DNA of 64,000 nt from IMG/VR virus record IMGVR_UViG_3300043080_000191; one strand, given 5' to 3'. Below the pieces are notes generated by a model. It saw only the letters and a list, made by a program, of their open reading frames with translations, did not search any database and had not been told where the DNA came from. The DNA is from a virus. The position numbers and the translations under genes were made by a program. Of the stretch, positions 44,067-60,086 are shown piece by piece. Positions within the stretch are counted from its first letter, which is position 1; every line of letters begins with the position of its first letter.

Positions 44067-44079
44067 TTAATCCCTCCGT

Positions 44080-44120
44080 CTAAATATAGTATAGTCCATA
44101 GGGGCCTACACTATATTTAG
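44080..44120 (-). promoter_or_regulatory. 15-bp-stem hairpin in the nrdD 5' leader, abutting the RBS; arms resemble degenerate NrdR boxes (ACACTATATTTAG)
   Basis: ctaaatatagtatag-(11 nt)-ctacactatatttag, with one mismatch. No U-run follows on the minus strand, so it is not a classic terminator. Confidence 0.35.
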
Positions 44121-44154
44121 AGTTTGTTATTATTTTATTATCTTATTTTGTCCT

Positions 44155-44712
44155 TTATGCGGTCTCATGGGCAAGTTCAAGAATCTTTTTAATTCCTAAA
44201 CTTAAATCAGATTCAGTTTCATTTATAATATCTTCATATTTAAAATCCAATTCTTCCCCATCAAAGTCAAGCATATCAGCTCTAAAACGTCTAATTATTT
44301 CATTAACATCTGGATCAGATTCTCTATTGAGTTGGCGTAAGAGTCTCGTCTTATCTGAGGCTTGCACATAAAATACATGCACATCAACATTTTTATTATG
44401 TAATAAAGACTCTATTCCAGCTGGATTAAAAACTCCAATATTCCAAATATCTGATCTTAATGATTCAAAACCTGTTCCATAAAACCAATCATTAAAACAT
44501 GTTGCTTCTAACATTTCTCCTTTTAGAACCTTGTCTCCAAAAGTTTCTGGGTCTAAAAAGAAATAATTAATACCATCTATCTCACCTTCTCTTGGTGGTC
44601 TTGTAGTACAGCTAACAATCTCATGCAAAGTACAATCTTTCTCTAATACCTTTTGCAAAATTGTATCTTTACCAGACCCCGCTTTGCCAATTATTGCAAT
44701 AATCTTATACAT
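44155..44712 (-). CDS. Guanylate-kinase-like nucleoside monophosphate kinase (start moved to 'MYKIIAIIGKAGSGKDT' after RBS aaaggagg)
   Basis: P-loop GKAGSGKDT plus 'SCTTRPPREGEIDGINYFFL...YGT', the guanylate kinase signature. Confidence 0.6.
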   Translation of the reverse strand: MYKIIAIIGKAGSGKDTILQKVLEKDCTLHEIVSCTTRPPREGEIDGINYFFLDPETFGDKVLKGEMLEATCFNDWFYGTGFESLRSDIWNIGVFNPAGIESLLHNKNVDVHVFYVQASDKTRLLRQLNRESDPDVNEIIRRFRADMLDFDGEELDFKYEDIINETESDLSLGIKKILELAHETA

Positions 44713-44734
44713 TATACCTCCTTTTGGAAGAGGA

Positions 44735-46064
44735 TTACTCCTCTTCCAAATCACCTTGATATCTATGATCTCTTAATCGGATTCTTCCATCTTCATATAT
44801 TTCATCAATTTTGTATAACTGATGACCACCAGAAGATGCATATTTCTTAGAAATAAAATCATCTCCAGAGCGAATACCCATTACTACAATCATATTACCT
44901 CTATTAAACCAAGATTTTTCAACCACATGTTTTACTCCATCATCGCCTTTAATTGAAATTTGTTTATCAAATAAAGCAAAATATTCTTTTCTAAACTTAA
45001 CATTTACAACTCCAGAAGTGGTTAATAAGGTAACTGTACTCTTTGCTTTATTCTTAGCAATACATGTGCCGCAAATCTTATTTAATTTAAAGATGTTAAT
45101 TGTCTTTCCACCTTTGGTGAAAGTTCTTTCAACTACTGGATTTTCTGGAAGCTTAAAGAAATCACTAAAACCATATAAAGTATTATTTACATGCGCTAAT
45201 TCATGCTCGTGATAATAAAAACATAATGCTTCCATTTCCCATGCAGATATTGTTCCTTTGGCATATTTTTGCCAATCATCCATAAAGATTTTAGAATTAA
45301 GCTCATTTAAAATGGCTTCTTTATCTGCGGCAATCCAAACTCTAAAGACGTCCATCCAACTCTGATAATATTTATCCCATGCTTTTACATCAAGATAATA
45401 TCCTAATCCATCACATGTAATTAAGTCATTCATTTCTATTTCAGATAAGAAATTAAAGGCTCTATCGTCAAGTGTATAATATGTCATAGCTTTATTTGGT
45501 CTACACATTGCTTTTAAGTATCTATTAAATTCATAGATTCTTCTTGCCATAACTCTTTCATCTGTATCTTCTGGAAGAAGATTATGTCGAATCAAACCAG
45601 GAAGATTCTGCAATGTAAGTCTCTTTTTCTTATCACATGTTTCCCAGATATACCATCCCATACACTGACGACGATCCATCATATCATCAAAAGCTCCACC
45701 TTTAATAAGCGAAATCATTGCTTGCTTTCCGGGATGAACTTTATTTAAAAAGTCTCTAGGAGAAACATAAGGTCTATTCTTAATTGTCGCTTCAATTATA
45801 TCATCACCAACATTCAACATAGCTTTCATGCCATAAAGAATCCTATGATTTTCTGCATCTGGCTTAAATCCAAAATCTGAATGATTAATATTTACTAAAC
45901 TAAGATTAATACCAGCATTAATAATTTCACCCATAGCTTTTGCAATTTTACCATAATCAGTTTGTCCTGCATTTTCTGGATCAGTTGCGCCACTATTTAC
46001 AATCAAACAAGCTGTGTTCCAATAAATAGGATCCCAGTTAGTTGCAATAAATAATGTCTGAACA
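44735..46064 (-). CDS. dnaE: DNA polymerase III alpha (DnaE) exon 3 (C-terminal HhH/OB region)
   Basis: '...IGVQTLFIATNWDPIYWNTACLIVNSGATDPEN...SLIKGGAFD' aligns to DnaE '[11 protein letters not shown]...'. The frame is open upstream of the annotated TTG, back to the intron. Confidence 0.7.
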
Positions 46065-47308
46065 CCGATGAAAGAATAAGCTAATGCGTGTATGCATTAT
46101 TATAAAAATAACTGACTATTTTTTACAGTCGTAGTAGTGAAGTTGGTAAGGCTTCTTGACTGCACACTATTTCCCAGAACGTATCAATAGTTCCAGTACT
46201 CCCGGTCTAATCCAGGATAGTCGATACAACATTTCAAGTTTAAAAGGTTTATTTTTTATTTTCTTAAAGGATAAGAAAGATTTTCTTTTTTATGCGCTCG
46301 TCCTGCATTAATATTTTTTACAGTTGAATAACTTTTATTCCATTTTATAGCAATTTTATTAAGAGATAAATCAGTTTCTAAAATATCTTTTATAATTCCA
46401 TTTACCCAAATTTGATTATTTTCCTTTCTACTTCCTTTATTACAAAGTGGATAAGTATCTTCTTCACTATAAAAATATTTTCCAGTATTTATCATTGATA
46501 AAAAACCAGCGCTTTTAATATTAAAATCTTTTTGTATACTAGAATATTTTTCCCCTGATTTAATTCTATTTTTAATTTCTCTAATCTCTTTTTGAGAAAA
46601 TCTGCTTTTAGCATTTTTCTTTAATGGATAATTAAAATCAGGATTATAAAAATTAGCTCCTGTATTAATATTAACTAAAAAAGTTCTTTTTAATTTTGGA
46701 GAATAAATTTTTTCGATATCATCATATTCTTCATCATTTATTAATCTCCTCTGAATATCTTTAATCTCTTCTCCTGTAAATAATTTAGAACGTTGCAATT
46801 TTTCTAAATAAGTTAATGGAGGTTTTGAACATCCATCTCCACCTTTAGTTAAGTTATATCCATTTTCAGTAGTTAAAGAGTGAAAATGTTCAATAAAATA
46901 AATTTCTCTATCATTTATAAAATCTTTTGATTCTCCATCTGCAATTTCTTCTAAAACTTCATATGAAAAATTATTCATTCCATATTTCCTAATTGCGCAA
47001 TGAAAAGGTAAATAATATCCATTACTTTTAATATTAAAAGCTTCACTTTTATGCCCATTAAATCTTTTTTGCAAATCATTTGTTTGTCCAATATAAATCT
47101 TTCCATTTATCTTATTGGTATATTTATAAATATAATACATATTTCTCCCTCCTCTCTGTGGATATTTGAAAATTTTAATACCTCTTTTAAACTGATTTGT
47201 CACGAGATTTTACCCTCGTTAGCAATTAATCATTGATTTTACCAGAATCAATTTTCAATTAATTACCCCGATGATGAATCGGTTAAGTGTGTAAGCGCCA
47301 TTTACACA
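46065..47308 (-). mobile_element. Group I intron (about 1.24 kb) in dnaE carrying a GIY-YIG homing endonuclease; boundaries +/-20 nt
   Basis: dnaE is interrupted between '...KYGAGPQMGYSF' and 'IGVQTLF...' (E. coli DnaE is continuous here: [21 protein letters not shown]). The 3' segment has P7-type elements UAUCGACUAUCC ... AAAAAUAGUCAG. The exon-1 reading frame hits a stop 3 codons into the insert. Confidence 0.6.
46256..47140 (-). CDS. GIY-YIG homing endonuclease (intron-encoded), with C-terminal NUMOD-like HTH repeats
   Basis: 'MYYIYKYTNKINGKIYIGQTNDLQKRFNGHK...GYNLTKGGDG' after RBS GAGGAGGGAG. The ORF-track start at 47203 is an upstream GTG with no RBS. Confidence 0.8.
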   Translation of the reverse strand: MYYIYKYTNKINGKIYIGQTNDLQKRFNGHKSEAFNIKSNGYYLPFHCAIRKYGMNNFSYEVLEEIADGESKDFINDREIYFIEHFHSLTTENGYNLTKGGDGCSKPPLTYLEKLQRSKLFTGEEIKDIQRRLINDEEYDDIEKIYSPKLKRTFLVNINTGANFYNPDFNYPLKKNAKSRFSQKEIREIKNRIKSGEKYSSIQKDFNIKSAGFLSMINTGKYFYSEEDTYPLCNKGSRKENNQIWVNGIIKDILETDLSLNKIAIKWNKSYSTVKNINAGRAHKKENLSYPLRK

Positions 47309-48501
47309 ACGCTGAATGAATAACCCATCTGTGGACCTGCACCATATTTCCAGATATATTCTCCCAATTTTTTGGAAGTCGCCTTAGATAAAACTTTTGC
47401 TTTCAATTCTGGAATCTTTGACATCTGCTTCTTACCAACAATTTTACGAGCCGCATTTGCTTCACCAAGAGAAAAACCGCAAATATCTTTATCCATTAAC
47501 ATTCTCATTAATTGCTCCTGGCTTGGTGGAACTCCATATGATTGTTTAAAATAAGGTTCAATAGTTTTTTGCTCTTCTTTTGTTAGACCAAAATTATCCA
47601 TTTCTTTATACCATAAGCTAATATCTTTCTTATACTTACAGTATTTTACCATTGGGCGTTCCTCACCTTCTTCTCCAGTGAGTCGCATAAGACCATTCGC
47701 ATCTGCCATTTCAAGCACATTCTGCGGTTTAATCATTTTCGCTGCTTGGGCTCCAACCTGTGAATCAAACTGAAATGTATTAATTACAGATACATTACTA
47801 AGAGCATCCCAAATTTTTTGATCCTGTAGAGGAAGAACATTTGGATGAAAATACTTATCATATACTTCACGTAATTTTAACTCTGGATCAATTAAATTAT
47901 CAGCCTGAAGTAATTGAATTGTTTGAACTAATTTATCCTGAACCTCAGTTACAAGAAAATCATATTTTGTTAAGCCCATATACTCAGCATTATGAAGATC
48001 AAACTGAGTAATAACCTCTCCTTTTGGAGTTTTCATAAAGGCGCTATGCTCAAATGGGTCACCATCAAAAAGAATAACTCCAGAAGCATGAGAAGAACGC
48101 TTATTTACAAGACCTTCAATAGACATAATAATATCCAATAAACCTGGATAATTATTTACTTCACGCACAAATACAGAAATTGGTCTTCTATTTTTTTCTG
48201 GATTACCATTAACAACATCTTTAATTGGCCATAAAAATCCACGCTCTTCTGGAATTAAAGATGACATATACTGAGCTTCATCAATATCAATTCCTTCTGG
48301 ATAATCCTCAGATCTATATCCACGACAAGCGGTTAATACAGCAGATTTAGTTCCTTCTGTTCCAAAAGTTGCAATAAGAGTACAACCAAGTGCTTTCTTT
48401 GCCCATTCCGCAATTCCTTCTTTAAGCATTGCGCTTCTTTCTTCTCTAATTCTTTGAAGAATTAAAGGTCTCTTAGATGGACATATATCAATATCAATAT
48501 C
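47309..48501 (-). CDS. dnaE: DNA polymerase III alpha (DnaE) exon 2 (palm/fingers)
   Basis: Begins 'DIDIDICPSKRP...' (E. coli PDFDVDFCMEKRD) and contains 'RSSHASGVILFDGDPFEHSAFMKTPKGEVITQFDLHNAEYMGLTKYDFL' (DnaE 'HAAGVVI...TQFD...GLLKMDFLGL'). Confidence 0.75.
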
Positions 48502-48838
48502 CTTTTATTGGACTATCTCTTTCACAATAATCTACTGAGAGTTATTACTTCGATTATTGCTAGAATGCGCTACGGGACAGTGCATCTCCATCCCTCTCAA
48601 AACTTTTATAAAAAGTTTTATTTAGTCTCTACACTCCAATAAATTTTATTAAAGCACGGTATTGCAAAGTCCAACCATATTTCAGGCCACTCGTTCTCTT
48701 AGTCAGCTGATTCGTGTTTATATTTTTTTTGATAAACCTTATTTTGCTGATACCGTTAGCATAATTTTTTTTTAATTACACACCCTTTAGCAAGGTTCAC
48801 ATTCTTTATTTACAACTCGGCAATATCAATATTAGACT
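48502..48838 (-). mobile_element. ORF-less group I intron (about 337 nt) in dnaE at the PDIDID motif
   Basis: Exon 1 ends ...ERVELG(GGU). Intron nt 18-24 GCCGAGU pair with the exon end ACUCGGU, giving P1 with a U-G wobble at the 5' splice site. R-like GUGUAGAGACUAAAU and S-like AAGAGAUAGUCC (P7 GACUA/UAGUC) are present. The intron ends ...AAUAAAAG (omega-G) before GAUAUUGAU (DIDIDI). The spliced product 'ERVELGDIDIDICPSKR' matches E. coli 'ERVSMPDFDVDFCMEKR'. Confidence 0.7.
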
Positions 48839-50182
48839 ACCGAGTTCGACTCTCTCATCATTAAGATAACGAAAGAACGGAAGATCCCATTCAATAGGAT
48901 CAAGCTGAGTAATACCCATAAGATAATGATTTAATGCGGCACATGAAGAACCACGACCTGCGCCAACCATCGAACCACAATCCCAAATCATATCAATATA
49001 ATGTTGTAAAGTATTCGGATAACGAAACATATTCGTTTCAAGTTTTTCACTAATTACAGTTTTAACTCTAGCTTCTTCTTCAAGTTCTGTGATATATCTA
49101 TTATCTGTAATTAGATTTTTTTCTTCCAAAGATTCAAGACACTGATTTACCCAATATCTATCTTGGTCATCATCAGAGTGCGCCAATCGAGTTAAGTTTG
49201 GACAAGACTCGCTATCAATACTCCATGGAATATTTTTAGGATATTTTTTAACTTCTACTCTTGGAATATCCTGCTTATGAAAAAGAGAATACTGTTCAAT
49301 TTTATCTTGCATTTCAAGAGTATTATCTAAAATTTTATCTACAAAACCATATGGAAAACAAGGGGATAATAATTCTTCAATTTCTTCTGAATCCATTAAA
49401 TGTGCAAATTCATAAAAAGAATCAATTTCACGCTCTCCATTTTTAGAATTAAGATAACCTTTATGTACAGCTCGATCTTCTTTTGTAAGATAATGAGCAT
49501 CAGTACCAACAACCATTTTAATTCCAAACATTTGGGCAATTTGGTATAATTTCATATTGACGGTCATCTGATCTTCAGCAGTTGAAGGCGCGCACTCAAT
49601 ATAAAAATCATCACCAAATAAGTTCAAGCAATATAAAATAAAATCTTGAACTTTATCCATATAGAAATTATAAGAATTAATATCATTAACTTTTTTAGAT
49701 TCCTCAGCTAATAATGTATTGCTTGATAACTCACCGCCAATACAAGCTGTGGTTGCTATGACATGACCTTTATACTGCTGGATAATATCACTTAATTCAT
49801 CTTTTGTAGTTGGAACTCTTTCCATTCCTCTATCAGAGTAAGAATAATACCAAGCTGTAGAGCTTAATTCTTTTAAAGCTCTATATCCAATTTCATCTTT
49901 TGCAATAAGAATGAAATGATAATATTTCTGACCATTTTGTCTTTCATCAACAAGATAGATTTCATTTCCTAAAGCAACTTTAAAATCTTTGTTTTGAATT
50001 TTTTCAAGATGTTGCAGAGCGGAAACATGAGCAGATAAACATTCATGATCTGTAATTGCAATGCCAGAAAGCCCTAATTCAATCGCTTTATCAATTAGGG
50101 CTTCTGGTCTATTAATGCAATCAAGAAGTCTAATGTTAGAATACATTGTATGTGAATGACAATTAAAATAACTTCTTCTCAT
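48839..50182 (-). CDS. dnaE: DNA polymerase III alpha (DnaE) exon 1 (PHP domain and N-terminal palm)
   Basis: 'NCHSHTMYSNIRLLDC...IAITDHE' is a PHP domain. '...GAGRGSSCAALNHYLMGITQLDPIEWDLPFFRYLNDERV' matches DnaE '[37 protein letters not shown]'. Confidence 0.8.
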
Positions 50183-50231
50183 TAATATTTCCTTTCATAT
50201 TTTATTTTCTACATATATTATATCATTTTTA

Positions 50232-50861
50232 TTATAATTTATCAATTAAATCTTCTTTAAGAGAATAAAAAGAATCATAAATATTCGCCCAAGTATAATA
50301 TAAAATTTGATAATCGAAGGGAACCCACTCAAAAGATTTACAAAGAATTACATAATCCGCATCTTCCAATAGTGGAAAATCAAAATCATCAAATAAAATA
50401 TCTCTTGTAATATAGGCTGGATTAGCATCTTCATCTAATGGATTAGAGTCTTTATTGCGAATCCATGTGTATGAATTAATCTTTTTATTATCCCATAAAT
50501 ATTTTACCCAATTACCGCAATCAGGTTTAGTGTATTTAGGAGCTTTCCATCGTTCTCCTTCATATCCAATATCATGATGATGATCTATATTTATTAAATC
50601 AAACGGCTCAAAATCTTTAGTTATCGTAACTAGCTCTTCGTGAGATGTAATAAAAATAATTTTATCCTTGTCTAGTTTTTTAAACATCTGGCAAAGATAT
50701 TGAGTCAAACAATCATACTGATATAAATCTGCTTTAATACCAGATATAAAAGGAAATTTATTAAGATAAGTATCTATGCTATCTTCATCATGTAGTAAAT
50801 CATTATAAAATTCGATAGATGGTGACATGATAATATCAAAATCAATACTAACAACTTTCAT
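50232..50861 (-). CDS. Hypothetical protein (209 aa) with DHHHD motif
   Basis: ORF. 'LINIDHHHDIGYEGERW'. No confident family call. Confidence 0.4.
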   Translation of the reverse strand: MKVVSIDFDIIMSPSIEFYNDLLHDEDSIDTYLNKFPFISGIKADLYQYDCLTQYLCQMFKKLDKDKIIFITSHEELVTITKDFEPFDLINIDHHHDIGYEGERWKAPKYTKPDCGNWVKYLWDNKKINSYTWIRNKDSNPLDEDANPAYITRDILFDDFDFPLLEDADYVILCKSFEWVPFDYQILYYTWANIYDSFYSLKEDLIDKL

Positions 50862-50872
50862 AATATTCTCCT

Positions 50873-51721
50873 TTAATAGCAGTCTGTTTTTCCAGGCTCA
50901 AGACCCATGCAAATTGGTTGACTTCCACATTTATTACATAAATCACCATATCGAGGTTTAAAGATCGGAGTATATAAAGCGCCGTCTTCTAATATATTTA
51001 ATCCAAGAGATCTAGCATAAATACCCTGTTGGGTTTTACTTGATCCAGTATTTACTTTAATTCCATTTTTAAGAAAATTATTTCCAGTTTCTATAAAAGT
51101 AAATTTAGTGCGCGCAGCCGCACATTGCTCGCTAAGACTAGCAACCCACTCGTAATGACAAGGTCTTGCGCCCCCATAATTTTCGCCGCCGCAATTTACA
51201 TTCATAATAAACCCTTCTGCCAGATAATCTTCAATATGAATTTCACTTAATAAAGGAGCACACATAATTCCTTTAAATTGAAAAGGCAGTTCTCGTAATA
51301 TTGGAATTCTTTCATCAGCTCTTTTCTGGTTCTCACAAGTTACATTCATTATTACATTATTTAATGGTCTCTCATTCCACCAAGAAGGCAAACATTCTAT
51401 AACTCGTTCTGGCCTTTTAGTAAGTAAATAGAATAAAACGTCTGGACGCCTTGACATTATATCCCAGCATTCATTTCTAAACTGATCTAATCCTTCAAAG
51501 AAAAAATCTGAATTCATACATACTCGTAGACATATTCCAGAAGGCACTTTATAATTACCCTGTCTATCTTTTTTAACAGGATAATTAAATTGACTAGTTA
51601 ATTTTTTACATTCAAAGAAATCTCTTTTATATCTATCATCTATCGTTTTTGCATAACAATGTTCACAACCTTCACTTTTTCCTTTACAGCCATGAATTGG
51701 ATTCCAAAGATCTAACGCCAT
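50873..51721 (-). CDS. Phage Gp37/Gp68 family (DUF5131) protein
   Basis: N-terminal 'LWNPIHGCKGKSEGCEHCYA' matches the family signature W-N-P-x-x-G-C-x-x-x-S-x-G-C-x-x-C-Y-A. 282 aa. Confidence 0.65.
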   Translation of the reverse strand: MALDLWNPIHGCKGKSEGCEHCYAKTIDDRYKRDFFECKKLTSQFNYPVKKDRQGNYKVPSGICLRVCMNSDFFFEGLDQFRNECWDIMSRRPDVLFYLLTKRPERVIECLPSWWNERPLNNVIMNVTCENQKRADERIPILRELPFQFKGIMCAPLLSEIHIEDYLAEGFIMNVNCGGENYGGARPCHYEWVASLSEQCAAARTKFTFIETGNNFLKNGIKVNTGSSKTQQGIYARSLGLNILEDGALYTPIFKPRYGDLCNKCGSQPICMGLEPGKTDCY

Positions 51722-51735
51722 ATTATACTCTCCTT

Positions 51736-52902
51736 TTATTCTTTTATTCTTGAGTTATAATAATTTTTTTCATTATCCTTTGTTAATAAAAATCTTGTTG
51801 TTTCAAGTTTTAAATCTTCTATTGTATAATCTGCATCATATGGAATACGAATAATAGGAATATTATTATTAAAGCAATATTGATTTTTTATCAAATCATT
51901 TTTTCTAACTCTTTCAAAATGTTCTTTTGTATCCCATCCAGTTCCTTTATAGTAAAAATGTTGAGAACCATCATATTCTATTATATACATTTCATCTACA
52001 TAAAAATCATATTCCATTGGGCGCCCATGAGTGGGATATAGTTCATTTAGCCTTAAATCTTTATATTGTCTAATAAAAGGTAAATTTAATTGTTCTAATA
52101 AATTGGCAATATTTTCTTCTTCATACGAAATTCTTCTTCCACAACCACAACTCTTTATACTTCCATTTACTAATCTTGAACCAACGACTATATGAGACTG
52201 TGTTCCGCATTCACATTTGCATTTATATAGAAATCCTCCACTACTATATTTATTGTCTAACTTAGAAATAACTGTTAATTTTCCAAACTTATCTCCTGGA
52301 CTAATTTGCAGATATTTTCTACATCCACAACTTTTTACTTTATTTGTAGTTAAATCTGATGTTTTAATGTCTTTTTCATTTCCACATTTACATTTACAAT
52401 GCCAATATCTATGTCCATCTTTTTTAAAAGCTAAATTCAATACAGTTAAATCATTGTATATTTTTCCAGTTAAATCCTCTAATTCTTGATTACATTGATG
52501 AGATAAACACCCACAAGATTTAACTTCTCCTGATGTTAAATTTCCATTTGAAACCCAAGTCTCATTCCCACAATCACATTTACATTTTAAATAAGTTTTT
52601 CCATTTTTCCGCTTTCTTTCATTTAAAACAATTAATTTATGGAAACGCATTCCTGTATAATCTTTTTGCATTTGTTTATGTTGACATTCTTCACATTGCT
52701 GAGACCATGACCCAGCTCTTAATTTACCAATATTTCCACATTCGCATTGTCCTATCCACATTGGTCTTCTTGGATCTGTTGTTCTATATAAAATAGTCCA
52801 TTTGTTAATTTTTTGATTAGTAAAATCTTGTGCTTTTCCTACATCTCTTTTTCTCCAAAGAATATATGCTTCTTCTATCGTTTTTACATAAGTATTTTTC
52901 AT
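51736..52902 (-). CDS. Putative free-standing site-specific/homing endonuclease: four tandem Cys4 zinc-ribbon repeats plus a C-terminal DUF559/Vsr-like PD-(D/E)xK nuclease domain
   Basis: Repeats 'G..F..LTV...(10-15)...CKC[DKE]CG.E....S..L.SG..KSCGC' occur four times (the first is degenerate). C-terminus 'LPFIRQYKDL...EYDFYVDEMYIIEYDGSQHF...IIRIPY' matches the DUF559 pattern (F-x-R-Q ... D-F-Y-V ... E-x-D-G-x-x-H). Confidence 0.55.
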   Translation of the reverse strand: MKNTYVKTIEEAYILWRKRDVGKAQDFTNQKINKWTILYRTTDPRRPMWIGQCECGNIGKLRAGSWSQQCEECQHKQMQKDYTGMRFHKLIVLNERKRKNGKTYLKCKCDCGNETWVSNGNLTSGEVKSCGCLSHQCNQELEDLTGKIYNDLTVLNLAFKKDGHRYWHCKCKCGNEKDIKTSDLTTNKVKSCGCRKYLQISPGDKFGKLTVISKLDNKYSSGGFLYKCKCECGTQSHIVVGSRLVNGSIKSCGCGRRISYEEENIANLLEQLNLPFIRQYKDLRLNELYPTHGRPMEYDFYVDEMYIIEYDGSQHFYYKGTGWDTKEHFERVRKNDLIKNQYCFNNNIPIIRIPYDADYTIEDLKLETTRFLLTKDNEKNYYNSRIKE

Positions 52903-52903
52903 A

Positions 52904-54088
52904 TTAACCCCTAACTAATACAAGTTTTTCCGAAGCCCTTGTGCAACAAGTATATAACCATCGAGCGTGTTCGATCTTATTGAATGGAAAATTTTCTTCT
53001 ATAACCAGAACCTTATCAAATTCGCCGCCCTGTGATTTATGTCCAGTTATGGCATACCCATACGTAAATTGTCTAGGTACAATATCTCCAATTTTGTTTT
53101 TTAATTTTCCAAGAGCATAAGATTCCCGGCAATCTAAACAAGGTTCACCAGTTTCAATCATTGCTCTATCCATATCTATTGAATTAAATACTTTATTTTC
53201 ATCAGATATAAAATCTCCGCAAATAACATCCATCTGATGATTTCTCATTTTGATATATCTTGGAGCCATAATATACGTTTTAAAAGGATTTCGTAAAATT
53301 CCAGTTGTACCATTCACTAATACCGCGTTTCCATCCTCTGAAAAATCTTCCCAATAGTTTCTTAAACAGATCATTTTTTCGCCGTCTTGTGGAAGTCCGC
53401 TATAACCAAGCAAATCTCTCATTTGTTTATTTAAAGATAATCTTGTTGCGTTTGTGGCACAAATAATTTGATCTGCCCAAAGCATATGACCAGTAACTAA
53501 ATCTTTTTTAGGAATAACCATTGCCTCATGTCCAGATGAATATTTAAGTTCCTCTCCATTGCGAATTTTCATAGTTAATTGAATAATCTCTGATTCTGTT
53601 GCTTGCCGCATTACTTCATCTAAAAAAATATGTGGATGATCTAAGAAATCATGTGCTTCATTTTTATCAATCTGAGGAAGCTGAAATGGATCTCCAAGGA
53701 AAATGCAATATACATCATGCGTTAAAAGCATTTCTATCATAGATTTAGGCGCCATAGAAATTTCATCTACTACAACAATCTCATAATCTAAATACTTTTT
53801 AGGTTTACGAAAAAATCCTCCACCTGGACGCGGAAAACTATCATATAGTAATTTATGTAATGTCATAGCATTTTTATTACCTTTTTTTCTTAATACCTCA
53901 GCAGCCTTCCCTGTATAACACGCATATGCAACATCTTCTGGATCTACATCAAGAAAGTCAATAATGAAACGTACTAATGTTGACTTCCCTGTTCCTGCAT
54001 ATCCTGATATTACAGTATATTTATCACGATCTCTATATCTAGTTATTGCAATTTTAAGTCCTTCTAATTGTTTTTCAGTAAGAGTCAT
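52904..54088 (-). CDS. Dda/RecD-like SF1 DNA helicase
   Basis: Walker A 'GYAGTGKST', motif II 'VVDEISM', C-terminal 'YAITGHKSQGGEFDKVLV'. 394 aa. Confidence 0.75.
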   Translation of the reverse strand: MTLTEKQLEGLKIAITRYRDRDKYTVISGYAGTGKSTLVRFIIDFLDVDPEDVAYACYTGKAAEVLRKKGNKNAMTLHKLLYDSFPRPGGGFFRKPKKYLDYEIVVVDEISMAPKSMIEMLLTHDVYCIFLGDPFQLPQIDKNEAHDFLDHPHIFLDEVMRQATESEIIQLTMKIRNGEELKYSSGHEAMVIPKKDLVTGHMLWADQIICATNATRLSLNKQMRDLLGYSGLPQDGEKMICLRNYWEDFSEDGNAVLVNGTTGILRNPFKTYIMAPRYIKMRNHQMDVICGDFISDENKVFNSIDMDRAMIETGEPCLDCRESYALGKLKNKIGDIVPRQFTYGYAITGHKSQGGEFDKVLVIEENFPFNKIEHARWLYTCCTRASEKLVLVRG

Positions 54089-54090
54089 TT

Positions 54091-54618
54091 TTACTTCTCC
54101 TCATAGTCACAGTATTCATCCTCATCATCTTCATATTCAGCAGTTGAAAAATCAATATCTAAAAGATTAACATCTCTAAAAATTATTGTTTCATATGGAC
54201 AGCCCCAAATGCATCCTTCAACAAAGAGGGTTTTATCATCTCCATCATATGTAATATCTATTGGACAAAAACCGCATCCAAATTTATACCTTTCCTCATT
54301 AGTAAAATCATAAATTTTTCGTTCTGTTAAATCTAAGACTGTAATACATTGATAATCTCCAGAAGTAATAAGATATTCTTTATTATTAATTTTTGCATAT
54401 TCAAAAGGTGGACAAGTAGAATAATTTCTATTAAAAGAAAGCACTAACTCATTTCTTAAATAAATATCATATGAAGTATAATTCCAATACTTTTCATCTC
54501 CTCTGTGCTCATAAGCATGTTGAACAATTTTAATATCTCTTGGAATATCTTTAAATAACCTCACATCTTTAGTTAATATCTCTCTATATGACTCTGGAAT
54601 TTTCACTTCATGTCTCAT
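54091..54618 (-). CDS. Hypothetical protein (175 aa), acidic C-terminus
   Basis: ORF in an operon. Confidence 0.4.
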   Translation of the reverse strand: MRHEVKIPESYREILTKDVRLFKDIPRDIKIVQHAYEHRGDEKYWNYTSYDIYLRNELVLSFNRNYSTCPPFEYAKINNKEYLITSGDYQCITVLDLTERKIYDFTNEERYKFGCGFCPIDITYDGDDKTLFVEGCIWGCPYETIIFRDVNLLDIDFSTAEYEDDEDEYCDYEEK

Positions 54619-54621
54619 TTT

Positions 54622-54948
54622 TTATTCCTCCGTAAAAATAATTCCATCACAAAATGGATTGTCTTCAAATTCTATAAAATCTATATGCCCAACATTTGGT
54701 TCAAAAATTTCTAAATCCATTTTTTGATTTGGGTTTTCGGTCTTTTCACTTGTCTCCGGCCGGTTCTGTTCTGTGATCTCTTGTTCTAAGTATCCCATCT
54801 TTGAAAAGGTCTTACATAATGTATCTGTAAAGGCTTCTGCCGCAATGGCATTATCTGCAAGCCTTGATATAGCATTTATCATTTCATTAAAAGAAATTCC
54901 ACATGTTAAATATGAATTTAATAATTCACCTACAGTAGTATCTTTCAT
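54622..54948 (-). CDS. Hypothetical protein (108 aa)
   Basis: ORF in an operon. Confidence 0.4.
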   Translation of the reverse strand: MKDTTVGELLNSYLTCGISFNEMINAISRLADNAIAAEAFTDTLCKTFSKMGYLEQEITEQNRPETSEKTENPNQKMDLEIFEPNVGHIDFIEFEDNPFCDGIIFTEE

Positions 54949-55022
54949 ATATATCGCTCCTTTAAATATATCTATTAGGCTAGAGAATCTCTCTAGCCCT
55001 TTAGATATTGGATTAAAATAAA

Positions 55023-55274
55023 TTAATCATTAGATGAAGCATCAGACGTAATAGTTACTTCTGGAGTTTTAGCATAAAAGCCTAAAGCTTCTTTCTTAAA
55101 CTCAATAAAATCTTCATCAATCTGACTATCTGAAGCATGAGATACATCTTCAATAAATAAAGAAAAAGATGCATTAGCTTTAGAAATACTAGCTGAAAAA
55201 TGTGCTAACTGAACTCCATCAGTAGTTCTTGAATCAGCTTCAAAATTGGTGTTTTGAGAATTAATATATAACAT
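55023..55274 (-). CDS. Hypothetical protein (83 aa)
   Basis: ORF in an operon. Confidence 0.35.
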   Translation of the reverse strand: MLYINSQNTNFEADSRTTDGVQLAHFSASISKANASFSLFIEDVSHASDSQIDEDFIEFKKEALGFYAKTPEVTITSDASSND

Positions 55275-55323
55275 TATTCTCCTCCTTATATAATTATTAA
55301 AGACTATAAATAGTCTTTATAAA

Positions 55324-57087
55324 CTAAAAATAATATTTACTTTGCCCATCAATTTCATACTCTTCAATTAGAATTTGCGGAGTTGTTTTTCCTCCCCAAT
55401 AATTCTGTTCGCATTTACCAACTAAAGAAATAGTAGTACAACCATTTCCTTCTGGACAGAGTTTTTGAAATTCTTCTTCTGAAGATTTAAAACTGATTAA
55501 TTCAACCCCATTAGATAAAACAATTTTTAATGTAGGGTTTTTATCTTTAGACATCAAAATAATATTCTGAGAAGTAATATTTACTCCTGTTATAGCAATT
55601 AAAGGCTCTTCAATACCTTGACCCCAAACTGATTTTAAATTAGCTATATCTATAATATCTTTACCATTAAAATTTGATCCATGATAAATCATATCTACAT
55701 TATAGCTTGGAGAAAATTCAAATTCATCTAAATCAAAATCAGAACGATAAACTAATTTATCAAAATTTTGATTAGTAACTCCAACTCCAAAAGCAGAAGC
55801 ATGACCTTCTGCGTACATAACCAAACCAGTTTGATTTAGATATTCTTTAAAATTCTTAAAAGCAGATTTATCATATCCTCTTCCAGAACCTTCCCAAGTT
55901 ATATCTCCATTTTCATTAACAACTTTATTTAATAATAGTACTGGTCTTTGGTATTTAGCCATAAGTTGATTCGCTATTAAACCTGTAAGGTTTTTATCAA
56001 CATGATATTCAGGTTTTATTTTTATAATCAAAAACTTATGATTTAAAAGATTATCTTCTTCAATAATACTTTCGAGAGCGGTTAAACTATTATCTCTTGC
56101 TTTTTGTTGACGATTTTTAATATTCACACAATTTCGACAAGCTTGTTCAACCCTAGTTTCCATTTGCCCTTTACATCCACGCTTTGTAGATGGAATCTGT
56201 TCATATGCTTTAAAATCAAGCATCGATTCAAATAAAGTCATTTTTTCAGCAGAATTACCCATCCTAATAGTTCCATTTACTTGTGGAGCAATGTAGAAAC
56301 TAATTGCGAATGGATCCAAACCGCCATGCTTGTTAATTGAAAAATTCTGAACTTGAATCATCTGTTTAAAAAAAGGATTTCTTATACTTGCAAGACCTTT
56401 ATCAATTAATCGTTTAGTTTCATAGTCTCTTAAATCCATCATATCTGCTATCATTCCAAGAGCAGCCAAATCAAGAAAATTATCAGCTTCTTTAGTTCCT
56501 AATATTTCATCAATATAAGAACAAAATTTGTAAACCATTCCTGCGCCGGATAATGATTTTGTTGGATAATCACAAAGCTGATTATTAACAATACAAGCAT
56601 TTTCTGAAATTTTTTCAGCTTCATGATGATCAATAACTAAAACGTCAATTCCTTTAGCTCTTAAAAGTTTATGTTCTTCATAATCGTTTGAAGAAGAGTC
56701 TGGCGCTATTACTAATTTAACTCCTTCTGGAATTGTATTAGGAATAATACCATGCTGTTTTCCAGTATGAATACGATATAAAATATTATTTTGCGCATAC
56801 CCTGGAAATAAACAATTTAAATAATTAATTAGTATTGCCGATGAAGTAAAACCATCACAATCGCTATCCACTTGAAAGAATATTAAATCTTTTTGTGAAA
56901 TGTGTTTAACTAACATTTGCGCGCCTTGTTGAATATTCATAATCAATTTTGGATCGCAAATATCTTCATCTGTTGTATGTAAATAATGTTCGATATTTTG
57001 AGGATCAATGCCCCTATTTGAAAACACCGTCTCAACCACTGTCATATTTTTATCTGGGAGAACTGGTGATATTAGTTGATAATCCAA
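55324..57087 (-). CDS. recJ: RecJ-like ssDNA exonuclease (DHH family)
   Basis: 'FFQVDSDCDGFTS' (D-x-D-x-D-G), 'VLVIDHHEAE' (DHH), 'AEGHASAFGVG' (GGH..AAG-like). 587 aa. Confidence 0.75.
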   Translation of the reverse strand: MDYQLISPVLPDKNMTVVETVFSNRGIDPQNIEHYLHTTDEDICDPKLIMNIQQGAQMLVKHISQKDLIFFQVDSDCDGFTSSAILINYLNCLFPGYAQNNILYRIHTGKQHGIIPNTIPEGVKLVIAPDSSSNDYEEHKLLRAKGIDVLVIDHHEAEKISENACIVNNQLCDYPTKSLSGAGMVYKFCSYIDEILGTKEADNFLDLAALGMIADMMDLRDYETKRLIDKGLASIRNPFFKQMIQVQNFSINKHGGLDPFAISFYIAPQVNGTIRMGNSAEKMTLFESMLDFKAYEQIPSTKRGCKGQMETRVEQACRNCVNIKNRQQKARDNSLTALESIIEEDNLLNHKFLIIKIKPEYHVDKNLTGLIANQLMAKYQRPVLLLNKVVNENGDITWEGSGRGYDKSAFKNFKEYLNQTGLVMYAEGHASAFGVGVTNQNFDKLVYRSDFDLDEFEFSPSYNVDMIYHGSNFNGKDIIDIANLKSVWGQGIEEPLIAITGVNITSQNIILMSKDKNPTLKIVLSNGVELISFKSSEEEFQKLCPEGNGCTTISLVGKCEQNYWGGKTTPQILIEEYEIDGQSKYYF

Positions 57088-57148
57088 ATGAAATCAACCT
57101 CCTTTCATATCGAACACCTCTTTAAATCTTTAATAAAACCACTCCTTT

Positions 57149-57343
57149 TTAATCTTGTTTTACTTCATAATATTTACAAAATATTGAAGAAAAAATATTG
57201 CTTTCATTAATATGCTTATCTTTTAATTTACAATTTGTAAAAGTATAATAAGTCATTCCAATATCTCTCAAATATTTATTATAATATTTACAAAATTTAC
57301 ATCTTTTATGCTTTTTTCTGTATTGATAAATATTAGTATCCAT
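57149..57343 (-). CDS. Small Cys-rich hypothetical protein (64 aa)
   Basis: 'CKFCKYY...NCKLK...FCKYY'. Confidence 0.35.
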   Translation of the reverse strand: MDTNIYQYRKKHKRCKFCKYYNKYLRDIGMTYYTFTNCKLKDKHINESNIFSSIFCKYYEVKQD

Positions 57344-57351
57344 ATATCTCC

Positions 57352-57654
57352 TTAAAAATAAGTATAAACTTTATATGGGGGAAGTTTTGTACAAGGTTTA
57401 ATAATACAATGAATTAATTCTTCTGGCATATTAAGTTCAATAGCTGATTGATTATAAGCATATCCCCTTGCACTATTTACTGCTTTAATAACCCTCCAAA
57501 TATCACCATTTTCAAATTCCGTATAAGTGTCGTATAATGAAATTTTAGTACGAATTACTTTAATTCTATTTTCATTATATCGTCTTTCAATAAAATGAAG
57601 ATAGTCTATTGCGGCATCTCGATCTTTATCCCACCAAATTCCACCTCTTGTCAT
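57352..57654 (-). CDS. Hypothetical protein (100 aa)
   Basis: ORF in an operon. Confidence 0.4.
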   Translation of the reverse strand: MTRGGIWWDKDRDAAIDYLHFIERRYNENRIKVIRTKISLYDTYTEFENGDIWRVIKAVNSARGYAYNQSAIELNMPEELIHCIIKPCTKLPPYKVYTYF

Positions 57655-58010
57655 AATACAATCCTTTCTTTAAATAGTTGTAAAAATATTTCTTTTCCAC
57701 AATCAACTGGAGAGTCTTTATATCCAGTAATCATATTTTTATCAAAAATAAAAGAAATCGTTACATAATTTTTATATTTATTTCTTAATCTTATCAAATT
57801 ACTTTTTAAATGCTGAAACTCTTTATCTCCAATCTCTTGAAACTGCCTATCAAAAGCAACTATAATTTCAGTTGCGCCAGCCCCAATTAATAATTCAATT
57901 TGATAAGAAGAAACACTTGAACCACAACATGCTACAGATATATCATTTTCTAAACCAAAATAACTTTTATATAGAAGTGTACTTTTTTCCATATGAATCT
58001 TGAATTTCTT
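57651..58010 (-). CDS. dnaG: DNA primase (DnaG-like) exon 2: C-terminal half of the TOPRIM domain
   Basis: 'YFGLENDISVACCGSSVSSYQIELLIGAGATEIIVAFDRQF' matches TOPRIM 'YGINYAVASLGTS...VVLCYDGDRAG'. The frame is open upstream of the annotated TTG into the intron. The exact 3' splice site is ambiguous (58010 or 58016). Confidence 0.6.
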   Translation of the reverse strand, partial: KKFKIHMEKSTLLYKSYFGLENDISVACCGSSVSSYQIELLIGAGATEIIVAFDRQFQEIGDKEFQHLKSNLIRLRNKYKNYVTISFIFDKNMITGYKDSPVDCGKEIFLQLFKERIVL

Positions 58011-59026
58011 CAAGTACTGACTATCTCTTCCAATTATAAATATATAATTGCTGCCGTTTTGAGAATTGTATCAATAAATTCTCTACTTCCTTTACCGGAA
58101 TAGTCGATACAGGCTTATTTGTTTTTCCAATAAACTCTTTTACTTATAGAACGAGATTTTGTTCTTAATGGATATATATATCCTTTTAATCTATAGGCTT
58201 TAGTTTTTCCACGATTAATATCCATTATAGTTGAAGATGAACAATTAAATTGCTTAGAAATTTCAATAAAAGTTTTATCATTCTTTAAAATTTCCTCATG
58301 GATTTTTTTACATTCTTCTTGAGAAAAACGTAATCCTTTTGTACCTTTCATATTTGAAGATCGAATAGGATAAATTAAATTATCTCTTTTCCTTCGTTTA
58401 CCAGTATTTATATTATAAATATGTGTCATTGAAATTCCTGTTTTATTCATTATATCATTGTAAGAATAACTTTCATCTTTCAACATTTCAATAACTATAT
58501 CTATTTTATCTTCAGTAAATACTGGCCTAATTGGATTTGCGCCGCCAGTTGTTTGGTTATATCCATCATAATAAGTGTTATAATATGCAATCCAATATTT
58601 TTCTTTATCATTTAATTCTTCTTTTAAGAGATTTCTTTCTAAAATAATTAATTCGTATTCATCTTCTCCATATTTTCTAATTCCTCTGCTTAAAGGATAA
58701 TTATATTCTTTAAGTGAAATATCGAAAGGGTCATATTGTATATGTCTTTTATGCCTTTCTTTTAAATTTTCTGTTTGACCAACATATACAATTTTATTAT
58801 TTGATTTTTTTCTATAGGCATAAATAACATTGTCAATCATTTATAGTAAGACCTCCTTTTTTCATCTTTACTATGAAAAGAGATCCTTATTGTTTAAACA
58901 AATTTTCCCACGGGACCACCTTATTTTTCAATTTAGGCTCCCCCGTTAGCATATATACCATTTTTTTGGCGTATATATACCCCGCTGATAAACGGAAAAG
59001 CAGACTAGGGCGAAACACTAACTTTT
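58011..59026 (-). mobile_element. Group I intron (about 1.0 kb) in the primase gene carrying a GIY-YIG homing endonuclease
   Basis: Primase exon 1 ends '...AIIFEG' (TOPRIM 'EG') and then hits a stop. A possible P1 pairs exon AGGGU with intron GCCCU. 3' elements UAUCGACUAUUCC ... AGAGAUAGUCAG are near-identical to the dnaE HEG-containing intron. Confidence 0.55.
58115..58840 (-). CDS. GIY-YIG homing endonuclease (intron-encoded), paralog of the dnaE intron HEG
   Basis: 'NVIYAYRKKSNNKIVYVGQTENLKERHKRH...GYNQTTGGAN'. RBS AAGGAGG. C-terminal HTH-like repeats. Confidence 0.8.
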   Translation of the reverse strand: MIDNVIYAYRKKSNNKIVYVGQTENLKERHKRHIQYDPFDISLKEYNYPLSRGIRKYGEDEYELIILERNLLKEELNDKEKYWIAYYNTYYDGYNQTTGGANPIRPVFTEDKIDIVIEMLKDESYSYNDIMNKTGISMTHIYNINTGKRRKRDNLIYPIRSSNMKGTKGLRFSQEECKKIHEEILKNDKTFIEISKQFNCSSSTIMDINRGKTKAYRLKGYIYPLRTKSRSISKRVYWKNK

Positions 59027-59794
59027 ACCCTCAAAAATAATAGCTTTTTTAATTTGATTGATTTGATTTTTACTAAAATTAAAATTATACAGATTCATTC
59101 CAAGAGGATGATTATACATAATTCGATTAACTTTTAACGGGCGATATTTACCAAAAATATCAGCTTCTTCCTTACAAAGTGTTCGACCGCGCAATCCTAC
59201 AAATCTTCCATCTTTATCAAAATGAGGAATTGTTATTTGATCGCCTCCTGGATAAAAACCAATTAAAGCTTGGTTAATGGCTTCCTGAGAAATTCCTTCT
59301 TTTAACCAAGGCTCGATTTTTAAAGAATAATTAAATCTATCTAAGATTTCACTGTTGTATTCTTTTAGAATAACATTATCTTTCTTTTTTAAATCAATAT
59401 CTTGAATTCTTTTATAATTATCTAAATAGCTCCAATCCGCAAGTCCATTGTCATTCATTGAATCAACAACTTCGCCCATGATTCCGAATTTACCGGCAAT
59501 CCATCTGACTGCATCGTTTAAATCAAATTCAATTTCATGCTGAATCTTTGCTATTTTCCTAGTTAATTCAAATATATCAAAATAACTATCACAACCAGTA
59601 TAACATCGAAATAATCCACTATTTTCATAATAATACAATTTTCGACTTCCTTCTCCTGGTTGATTATGACAAATTGTAGATGAAAGGATCCCGAATGATG
59701 TATATTCAGGATCCCCTCCCCACTCTTGTAATAAATCAAAAATATTCTCAATAACTAAACTATCTCGAATTTCTGCTTTATCATAATTTATCAT
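59027..59794 (-). CDS. dnaG: DNA primase (DnaG-like) exon 1: CHC2 zinc finger and the start of TOPRIM
   Basis: 'CHNQPGEGSRKLYYYENSGLFRCYTGCDSYFDIFEL' is a CHC2 Zn finger. It ends '...KAIIFEG' followed by an in-frame stop inside the intron. Confidence 0.65.
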
Positions 59795-59822
59795 TTATTC
59801 ATCCTATCTTTCTTAATAAGAT

Positions 59823-60086
59823 TTATCCGATGATAACTTTAACACATTTCTCTTTTAGACCAAACTGGTCATTTACAATCCAGCAGAGATAAGCCTGTGC
59901 ATCCATTCTTTCTTCAGCACCTTTTCTTCCTTTAAGATAATCTCTTGCGATTGCTTTAGGCATCTTATACTCACAAGCGCCAACCTTTTCACAAGTGTCT
60001 ACTGGAGTAACTACCTGTTTGAAACCTACACCTTTAGTTTTCTTATTTACTTTGTTTGTTTTCTTTTTAGTTGTTTTCTCTGCCAT
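59823..60086 (-). CDS. Hypothetical protein (87 aa) with Lys-rich N-terminus
   Basis: ORF between the primase and dnaB-like genes. 'KKKTNKVNKKTKG'. Confidence 0.4.
   Translation of the reverse strand: MAEKTTKKKTNKVNKKTKGVGFKQVVTPVDTCEKVGACEYKMPKAIARDYLKGRKGAEERMDAQAYLCWIVNDQFGLKEKCVKVIIG

Follow-up and report, generated by a model that had tools for sequence, protein, structure and literature searches.

A probable homing-endonuclease-type gene joining zinc modules to a Vsr-like nuclease domain at the end of a phage helicase gene

In a phage known from virus record IMGVR_UViG_3300043080_000191 of IMG/VR, an open reading frame (ORF) for a protein of tandem zinc modules and a C-terminal nuclease domain lies between the Dda-like helicase gene and the DUF5131 (Gp37/Gp68) gene. 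Does such a gene serve the phage as a partner of its helicase, or does it spread on its own account through the end of the helicase gene? We analyzed the 64,000-nucleotide (nt) stretch that carries it, hereafter the window, meaning the whole stretch at its full length, following a sequence-only reading that had proposed a free-standing endonuclease of selfish character at this position. We consider it quite probable that this is a free-standing gene of the homing-endonuclease type, specialized on the very end of the phage Dda-like helicase gene.

Presence and absence at the helicase end

The comparison of related phages with and without the gene had been named beforehand as the check to make, and the gene proved not to be universal. 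Three contigs (L008, L015 and L016) share about 97% nt identity with the window over many kilobases on both sides while window positions 51738-52909 are missing from them, and the gene is therefore dispensable, since near-identical phages do without it. Searching IMG/VR with the helicase gave 39 loci, among which the 32 with at least 1 kb downstream were judged (the set was not de-replicated). No family member was present at 24 of these; at seven, the same site is occupied by a member with only ~40% identity, which lies 38-144 nt after the helicase; and a single locus has a 70%-identical copy there.

The limits of the insert can be read from L016, where the helicase stop codon is followed by 18 nt and then by the DUF5131 start codon. 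In gene orientation, with slashes at the limits of the insert, the window reads ...GTT AGG / GGT TAA T ATG...(388 codons)...GAA / TAA AAGGAGAGTATAATATG, and L016 reads ...ATG AGA TAA AAAATAGGAGAATATAATATG. By comparison of these junctions the insert measures about 1171 nt; it follows the last sense codon that both helicase genes share and precedes a stop codon, and homology to L016 restarts 0-3 nt from the endonuclease stop. The extra codon plus TAATATG is common to the close-clade loci L047 and L061. At the same site L008 and L015 have 174 nt with an unrelated small ORF (MKFLTGEQLL...; L008:7184-7365); with L016 empty, this means that the helicase/DUF5131 junction accepts different inserts.

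Carriers of close homologues (64-88% protein identity) were collected via the protein itself. At 14 such loci, on independent contigs, the close-clade gene begins 2-11 nt after the helicase stop, and the genes downstream vary. Seven backgrounds (L047, L007, L048, L051, L012, L059 and L061) display an island of similarity limited to the ORF: nt identity to the window inside it is mostly 0.65-0.95 per 60-nt bin (overall about 0.65-1.00), against 55-77% upstream in the helicase and 35-55% in the unrelated downstream flank. At most carrier loci the protein (64-88% conserved) exceeds the C-terminal half of the adjacent helicase (45-67%), as in L047 (88% versus 61%) and L007 (81% versus 49%). This pattern indicates that the ORF has a history separate from that of its flanks, i.e. 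horizontal spread to the same site. The ratio of nonsynonymous to synonymous substitution (dN/dS) against six relatives is 0.13-0.32, and by region it is lower in the zinc modules (0.08-0.29) than in the nuclease domain (0.28-0.37), indicative of purifying selection on the endonuclease gene. Polymorphism, island and selection are the properties that would be expected of an active, site-specific mobile gene.

The ORF runs from ATG to stop at 51736-52902, as first read, and encodes 388 amino acids (aa); it lies on the minus strand, which had not been given before. Both neighbors were correctly named: the Dda-like helicase upstream (phrog_325, E 1.4e-85), a 394-aa superfamily-1 helicase encoded at 52904-54088 that matches Pfam AAA_30 at 6.8e-23 and UvrD_C_2 at 6.7e-15, and DUF5131 (Gp37/Gp68) downstream (E 1.2e-37). 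The 1-nt spacing described for this gene applies between the helicase stop and the endonuclease ATG, whereas 14 nt separate the endonuclease stop from the ATG of the Gp37/DUF5131 gene. Helicase and DUF5131 genes are both complete, and the endonuclease ORF is intergenic, outside any intron or intein. The window has no near relative among cultured phages, where a megablast search with 7 kb gave zero matches and the best helicase, from Enterococcus phages, is 37.5% identical. The features of the site are as follows.

51736..52902, minus strand: whole endonuclease ORF, the putative mobile unit, 388 aa plus stop (ORF call; absence from L008, L015 and L016)
52903..52909, minus strand: upstream junction, with extra helicase codon GGT, helicase stop TAA, 1 nt, then ATG (last shared codon AGG; L016 reads AGA TAA)
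51722..51738, minus strand: downstream junction, with stop TAA directly followed by the ribosome-binding site (AAGGAGAG) of the DUF5131/Gp37 gene
52904..53599, minus strand: helicase 3' part, residues ~164-394, the mosaic part abutting the insert
53600..54088, minus strand: helicase 5' part, residues 1-163, nt 1-490, L008-like, 95-98% nt identity to endonuclease-less contigs
50873..51721, minus strand: DUF5131 (Gp37/Gp68) gene, downstream flank (Pfam, E 1.2e-37; 97-98% nt identity to endonuclease-less contigs)

Nuclease domain and zinc modules

A nuclease-like C-terminal domain had been proposed, and the strings quoted from it (PFIRQ, EYDFYVDEMYIIEYDGSQHF and IIRIPY) are each present in the protein. 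This is its only globular non-repeat domain, with an AlphaFold2 (AF2) predicted local distance difference test score of 94. Structure comparison assigns it a Vsr-like fold, other PD-(D/E)xK nucleases ranking after Vsr. Acidic residues and a histidine are among the positions invariant in 40 homologues of 36-88% identity (D299, E309, D311, G312, Q314, H315, D336, K339, N340 and R352), which upholds the nuclease-like assignment. The spacing D299-10-E309-6-H315-21-D336 parallels D51-11-F62-7-H69-28-D97 of Vsr (the sequence compared is identical to 1CW0), and these positions may correspond, residue by residue, to the catalytic residues of Vsr. When the full-length model was compared with the PDB by Foldseek, only noise was returned (Src kinases, Tudor domains and ribosomal proteins, all at E>0.01), because this bead-on-a-string model (predicted template modelling score 0.43) is dominated by small beta modules; modelling the C-terminal domain alone solved the problem.

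Among predicted viral structures (BFVD) the domain has 92 matches at E<=1e-3. Those of Bacillus phages Eldridge and Bobb and of Enterococcus phage EFP01 are named 'Homing endonuclease', and other names are 'Group I intron protein' (Lactobacillus phage LpeD), 'DUF2726 domain-containing protein' and 'Treble clef zinc finger domain-containing protein'. Of similar import are the PHROG matches, phrog_9084 ('homing endonuclease') on residues 254-369 at 8.4e-20 and phrog_7140 ('intron encoded nuclease') at 1.5e-13. The sequence-only reading had called the domain DUF559/Vsr-like. Its fold is indeed Vsr-like, but DUF559 (PF04480) is not the best family: it matches one of 25 members (E 0.066), and the window protein falls under its curated cut-off. 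DUF2726 (PF10881) matches 24 of the 25 at E<=1 (best E 4.1e-5) and DUF5889 (PF19237) matches 18 (best 1.9e-9), with one relative, P0106, passing the DUF2726 cut-off at 25.1 bits. To our knowledge, neither of the latter two families has an assigned function.

The domains of the protein, from its N-terminus, are as follows.

52678..52815, minus strand: zinc module 1, residues ~30-75, divergent, C53xC55...C70xxC73 (alignment position; predicted structure order)
52501..52656, minus strand: zinc module 2, residues ~83-134, C107xC109xC111G...SC130GC132 (CapR match; z 15-19 against modules 3 and 4)
52315..52473, minus strand: zinc module 3, residues ~144-196, C169xC171xC173G...SC192GC194 (motif, homologue alignment, Smith-Waterman)
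52135..52296, minus strand: zinc module 4, residues ~203-256, C228xC230xC232G...SC252GC254 (motif, homologue alignment, Smith-Waterman)
51787..52134, minus strand: Vsr-like nuclease domain, PD-(D/E)xK superfamily, residues ~257-372

Four tandem modules of ~45 aa had been counted. Three of them are canonical (CxCxCG...SCGC), while the remaining one, at the N-terminus, is divergent or degenerate (CxC...CxxC), and the measured repeat period is 56-62 aa with a core of about 50 aa instead of 45. The protein has 21 cysteines in total. Modules 2-4 resemble each other with Smith-Waterman z scores of 11-19 over composition-matched shuffles, and the observed score was reached in 0/2000. Similarity of module 1 to these three is weak (z 2.9-4.3); in the alignment it stands where distant homologues have a canonical module, and its predicted strand-strand-strand-helix order is that of the other modules.

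These are zinc modules, although 'zinc ribbon', as they had been labelled, is better replaced by CapR-like, CSL-like zinc finger. Full-length Pfam and NCBIfam scans gave no model covering them, and NCBIfam had zero matches for the window protein. Scanned alone, module 2 matches the CapR homology domain (Pfam PF21817) with 25.0 bits (gathering score 24.2; E 2.2e-5), a family that is unlisted in the full-length scan and matched by only 5 of 31 diverse modules. A module profile matches the CSL zinc finger of DPH3 weakly (E 0.025). The relationship to CapR is borderline and not established, because the cysteine pattern differs (CxC-18-CxC in the window modules, CxxC-24/26-CxC in CapR). CapR, a DNA-binding domain of the zinc-finger type, stems from phage homing endonucleases, and its four cysteines are needed for sequence-specific DNA binding (PMC8096241), and repeated CapR/DUF723/DUF4397 zinc-finger arrays are the DNA-binding part of T5orf172 homing endonuclease genes (PMC10448857).

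A regular-expression count over the best 120 homologues finds 1-8 modules per protein, with nearly all having 2-8. Searched alone, the two central modules match 291 records of cultured phages, whose hosts are Firmicutes, Proteobacteria and Actinobacteria, together with one archaeal virus; most of these matches fall on genes annotated 'HNH endonuclease'. One homologue, P0045 (583 aa), has eight zinc modules and then ends without a nuclease domain; it may be either a truncated gene call or a stand-alone DNA-binding derivative like CapR.

A different identity is suggested by the best-scoring PHROG families and by many GenBank annotations of relatives, according to which these proteins are HNH endonucleases. 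Both phrog_374 and phrog_559 carry that label, and 'HNH endonuclease' annotations in cultured phages overlie the zinc-module matches. The chance that it describes the window protein is close to nil. The match to phrog_374 (E 1.2e-50) covers the protein in four stretches, all on the zinc modules, and the Pfam scan returned no HNH family even at E<=1; these zero HNH-type matches and the Vsr-like fold of the catalytic domain refute an HNH identity. Enterococcus phage vB_Efs8_KEN04 joins the same modules to another C-terminal domain, indicating that the label is carried by the shared DNA-binding modules. Through phrog_374, phrog_559 and GenBank records such as PP582180.1 (WZP34903.1) it reaches Vsr-like nucleases without an HNH domain, and it seems to spread via the shared zinc modules, risking systematic mis-annotation. 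The same nuclease domain stands behind CxxC-type zinc ribbons in Streptococcus prophage Javan389, in a gene between terminase and portal. In cultured phages, zinc modules and nuclease domains are thus shuffled with other nucleases and other zinc fingers. More than 2,800 90%-identity clusters are matched by the family, which has relatives in hundreds of cultured phage genomes and no curated domain model; annotation would gain from one model for the zinc module and another for the Vsr-like domain.

The helicase mosaic and neighboring insertions

The helicase gene beside the insert is a mosaic. Identity to L008 is 95-100% from far upstream to window position ~53597, drops to 54-75% over the last ~690 nt of the helicase, and is back at 97-98% immediately past the endonuclease stop. 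In the protein, residues 1-163 are 98.8-100% identical to those of endonuclease-less contigs and residues 164-394 about 58%. Helicase nt 490-1010 (53080-53599) have about 88-100% nt identity to L020, L054, L055 and L056, contigs that outside this segment are only 65-69% similar to the window; the helicase 3' half of L020 is 93.5% identical to the window's. The last ~175 nt have no close match in any sampled contig, and the final ~30 nt are common to the close-clade carriers L047 and L061. The closest relatives of the endonuclease adjoin different helicase alleles, and across relatives the C-terminal half of the helicase is more variable (45-68% aa identity) than the N-terminal half (58-77%). 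Taken together, the alignments point to the helicase 3' half as a recombination hot spot ending at the endonuclease. As a speculative possibility, which we doubt, its variability might reflect an arms race in which the target site escapes the endonuclease family. Nucleotide differences at the helicase 3' end that split carriers from non-carriers formed no clean pattern in this sample.

A relic of the helicase end was found in L003-L006. About 100 nt of the helicase 3' end, encoding ...FPFNKVEHARWLYTACTRSSEKLVLVR in frame to the stop (L003:7125-7230), lie 1.8 kb past the intact helicase end, with the endonuclease gene and two small ORFs in between, and look like the scar of an earlier invasion through the helicase end. 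The relic and the segment boundary 100-175 nt before the helicase stop hint at a possible break or recognition site either within these conserved 100-175 nt of the helicase end or at the junction.

Two further observations concern the DNA upstream. At window positions 54797-55096 identity to L008 falls a second time, to 65-73% between stretches of 95-100%. This further recombination patch takes in the beginning of ORF 54622-54948 and the end of ORF 55023-55274, both of them small genes of unknown function. Some relatives have a GIY-YIG gene directly before the helicase (L004:3327-4010; L054:19-651, where it overlaps the helicase start). Both helicase ends are thus used by mobile nuclease genes.

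The replication module of the window contains three more window-only insertions relative to L008, besides the endonuclease. Two of them bear out the view that the endonuclease is the third nuclease-type element within 12 kb, since they hold GIY-YIG ORFs (58115-58840 and 46256-47203) that are absent from L008; the three nuclease genes span 12.6 kb. The insertion at 57990-59027 (1038 nt, absent from L008 and L015), with its GIY-YIG ORF on the minus strand (Pfam, 2.7e-6), parts ORFs 59018-59794 and 57651-58013, which are contiguous DNA in L008 and look by eye like the halves of a primase-like gene, neither having a Pfam match. The insertion at 46094-47308 (1215 nt), whose GIY-YIG ORF is likewise on the minus strand (Pfam, 3.3e-7), splits PolIII-alpha (DnaE) into a finger-domain ORF (47302-48429) and an HHH_6 C-terminal ORF (44735-46006); either an intron or a 'fractured' gene may account for this. 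The same polymerase gene is split again, between the PHP/N-terminal ORF (48806-50182) and the middle ORF, by an ORF-less insertion of about 319 nt (48502-48820) that is absent from L008, with a 13-nt ambiguous overlap at the junction. Folded as RNA, this last insertion reaches -69.1 kcal/mol (z = -2.0 against shuffles) with no Rfam match, and it is possibly a small self-splicing intron. An Rfam scan of 44000-60000 at E<=0.1 gave zero matches, and on this evidence the four window-specific insertions do not qualify as introns. The L008 comparison supports the earlier view of a module crowded with selfish nuclease genes.

Mechanism, alternatives and comparison with known systems

If the gene homes, its cycle would begin in a mixed infection, where the zinc array would bind genomes that lack the endonuclease. 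Its long site there would be within the conserved last 100-175 nt of the helicase, beside them, or at the junction of the helicase and the downstream gene. The Vsr-like domain would then nick or cut this target with Mg2+; by analogy with D51, D97 and H69 of Vsr, D299 and D336 would be metal ligands and H315 the general base. Recombinational repair off the carrier genome would copy in the gene together with variable helicase flank, i.e. intronless homing, and the carrier would be protected by the insertion itself or by its altered helicase 3' end. The gene has no obvious promoter of its own and is probably translated from the helicase transcript, for which a Shine-Dalgarno-like AGGGG inside the last helicase codons may serve translation start.

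Several observations weigh against this reading. The constant 2-11 nt position and the purifying selection would likewise suit a gene from which the phage benefits. The helicase alleles closest to the window in the middle segment (L054, L055 and L056; 90-92% aa identity) come without this endonuclease, and what follows the helicase is an unrelated 204-aa ORF in L055 and L056 and a 36% family member in L054; the mosaic is therefore not assignable to a single homing event, and one such event importing both the divergent helicase 3' half and the endonuclease was rejected as unproven. Likeness to characterized Vsr-like enzymes is structural only. Against PDB sequences, neither the full protein nor a profile of 25 nuclease domains gave a meaningful match, the profile retrieving neither Vsr nor 3R3P at E<=10, while Vsr itself retrieves 3R3P at 4e-4; when the family profile was compared with Vsr by hhalign, the first motif alone was aligned, FDF(D299) with PDF(D51), at 4.9% probability. 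The window protein scores 19.5 bits at full length and 22.5 for the domain alone against DUF2726 (cut-off 24.7), and 15.4 or 16.7 bits against DUF5889 (cut-off 27.1). The literature searched gave no cleavage activity, zinc binding or target site for the window protein or close relatives.

Some of these observations would suit an accessory nuclease paired with the Dda-like helicase in replication, recombination or end processing, and kept because it is useful rather than selfish. The close clade sits directly behind the helicase stop at all 14 carrier loci with no promoter-sized gap, and the dN/dS values fit a helicase-partner gene. We nevertheless find this account very unlikely, given that the gene is missing from phages ~97% identical throughout the replication module, in which an intact helicase directly precedes the next gene, that 24 of 32 helicase-bearing relatives do without it, that ORF and helicase have different histories (as in L047 and L007), and that family members occur in unrelated contexts such as the terminase-portal interval of Javan389. 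A domesticated or exclusion derivative is another way to read the constraint on the protein: having ceased to home, it would serve to cut competing phages or the DNA of the host, or act as a DNA-binding regulator like CapR, which is exactly such a domesticated zinc-finger module (PMC8096241). The stronger constraint on the zinc region than on the nuclease domain agrees with this. A pure DNA-binding role is unlikely because the catalytic-type residues are invariant in the 40 homologues, and the recurrence of the ORF-sized island at one and the same site in many backgrounds speaks for ongoing site-specific mobility; exclusion of competitors is itself compatible with homing, so the readings overlap. 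On balance, we regard a derivative that has given up homing as improbable, and retain a homing-endonuclease-type gene as our reading of the locus.

The array had also prompted the idea of a long, programmable recognition site, which is speculative. In its fuller form, the tandem CapR-like modules would be a modular reading head in which each contacts a fixed number of base pairs, with module number and order setting the target. We are doubtful that this holds; if true, a compact Vsr-type nuclease could be directed to new targets by re-assortment of its arrays, whether in nature or by design, in the manner of zinc-finger or TALE nucleases.

As for known systems, the protein appears from its model to work like an EDxHD/Vsr-like homing endonuclease of the same fold, while standing outside the sequence-homology and NUMOD definition of that family. 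In I-Bth0305I and the 'EDxHD' (Vsr-like) family (PDB 3R3P; PMC3239194, PMC2677866), as here, a C-terminal Vsr-like nuclease is tethered to an N-terminal modular DNA-binding region in phage-borne proteins, some of them free-standing. The window protein has D299, E309 (the family has a Glu at the Vsr Phe62 position), H315 and D336 at spacings near those of Vsr D51, F62, H69 and D97. Its N-terminal 255 residues differ in being four Cys4 zinc modules, whereas EDxHD proteins have two NUMOD/helix-turn-helix motifs; the Pfam scan of the window protein gave no NUMOD or helix-turn-helix family, and the protein lies beyond the BLAST limit of E<1e-3 used for homology in those papers. I-Bth0305I is intron-encoded, in contrast to the window gene, which is intergenic. 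I-Bth0305I is also a known dimer and double-strand cutter; the window protein may either act in that way or nick as Vsr does. E. coli Vsr (1CW0) is a stand-alone T:G mismatch repair nickase that has a zinc site of its own and intercalates through Phe67/Trp68. An FW pair of this kind is absent from the window protein (it reads G-S-Q-H), which would have Glu in place of Vsr Phe62 and Asp in place of Vsr His64.

The T5orf172 genes, e.g. ICP1 gp174 (PMC10448857, PMC8096241), resemble the window gene in having a variable number of tandem Cys4 zinc fingers at one end and a nuclease at the other, and in lying at boundaries of genetic exchange between phages; their nuclease is GIY-YIG-related, whereas that of the window protein is Vsr-like. 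The position of the window gene recalls the free-standing seg/mob genes of T-even phages, a comparison that draws in part on a review (PMC3943268). Those too are intergenic between conserved replication genes, patchy in close relatives and several per genome, with mosaic or co-converted flanks (intronless homing). They have other nuclease and DNA-binding folds, and their cleavage site and co-conversion are experimentally demonstrated in T4 and inferred here. Each part of the window gene and the principle of shuffling have already been described, its relatives in cultured phages are already labelled homing endonucleases, and the current understanding of homing endonucleases is unchanged. Filled site, exact empty site, alternative occupant and invasion relic are all available as sequence, so a cleavage assay can be designed directly. 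Beside these systems the locus would stand as a clear instance, in nature, of intronless homing among uncultured gut-type phages, and as a case of a nuclease gene marking a boundary of genetic exchange inside an essential replication gene.

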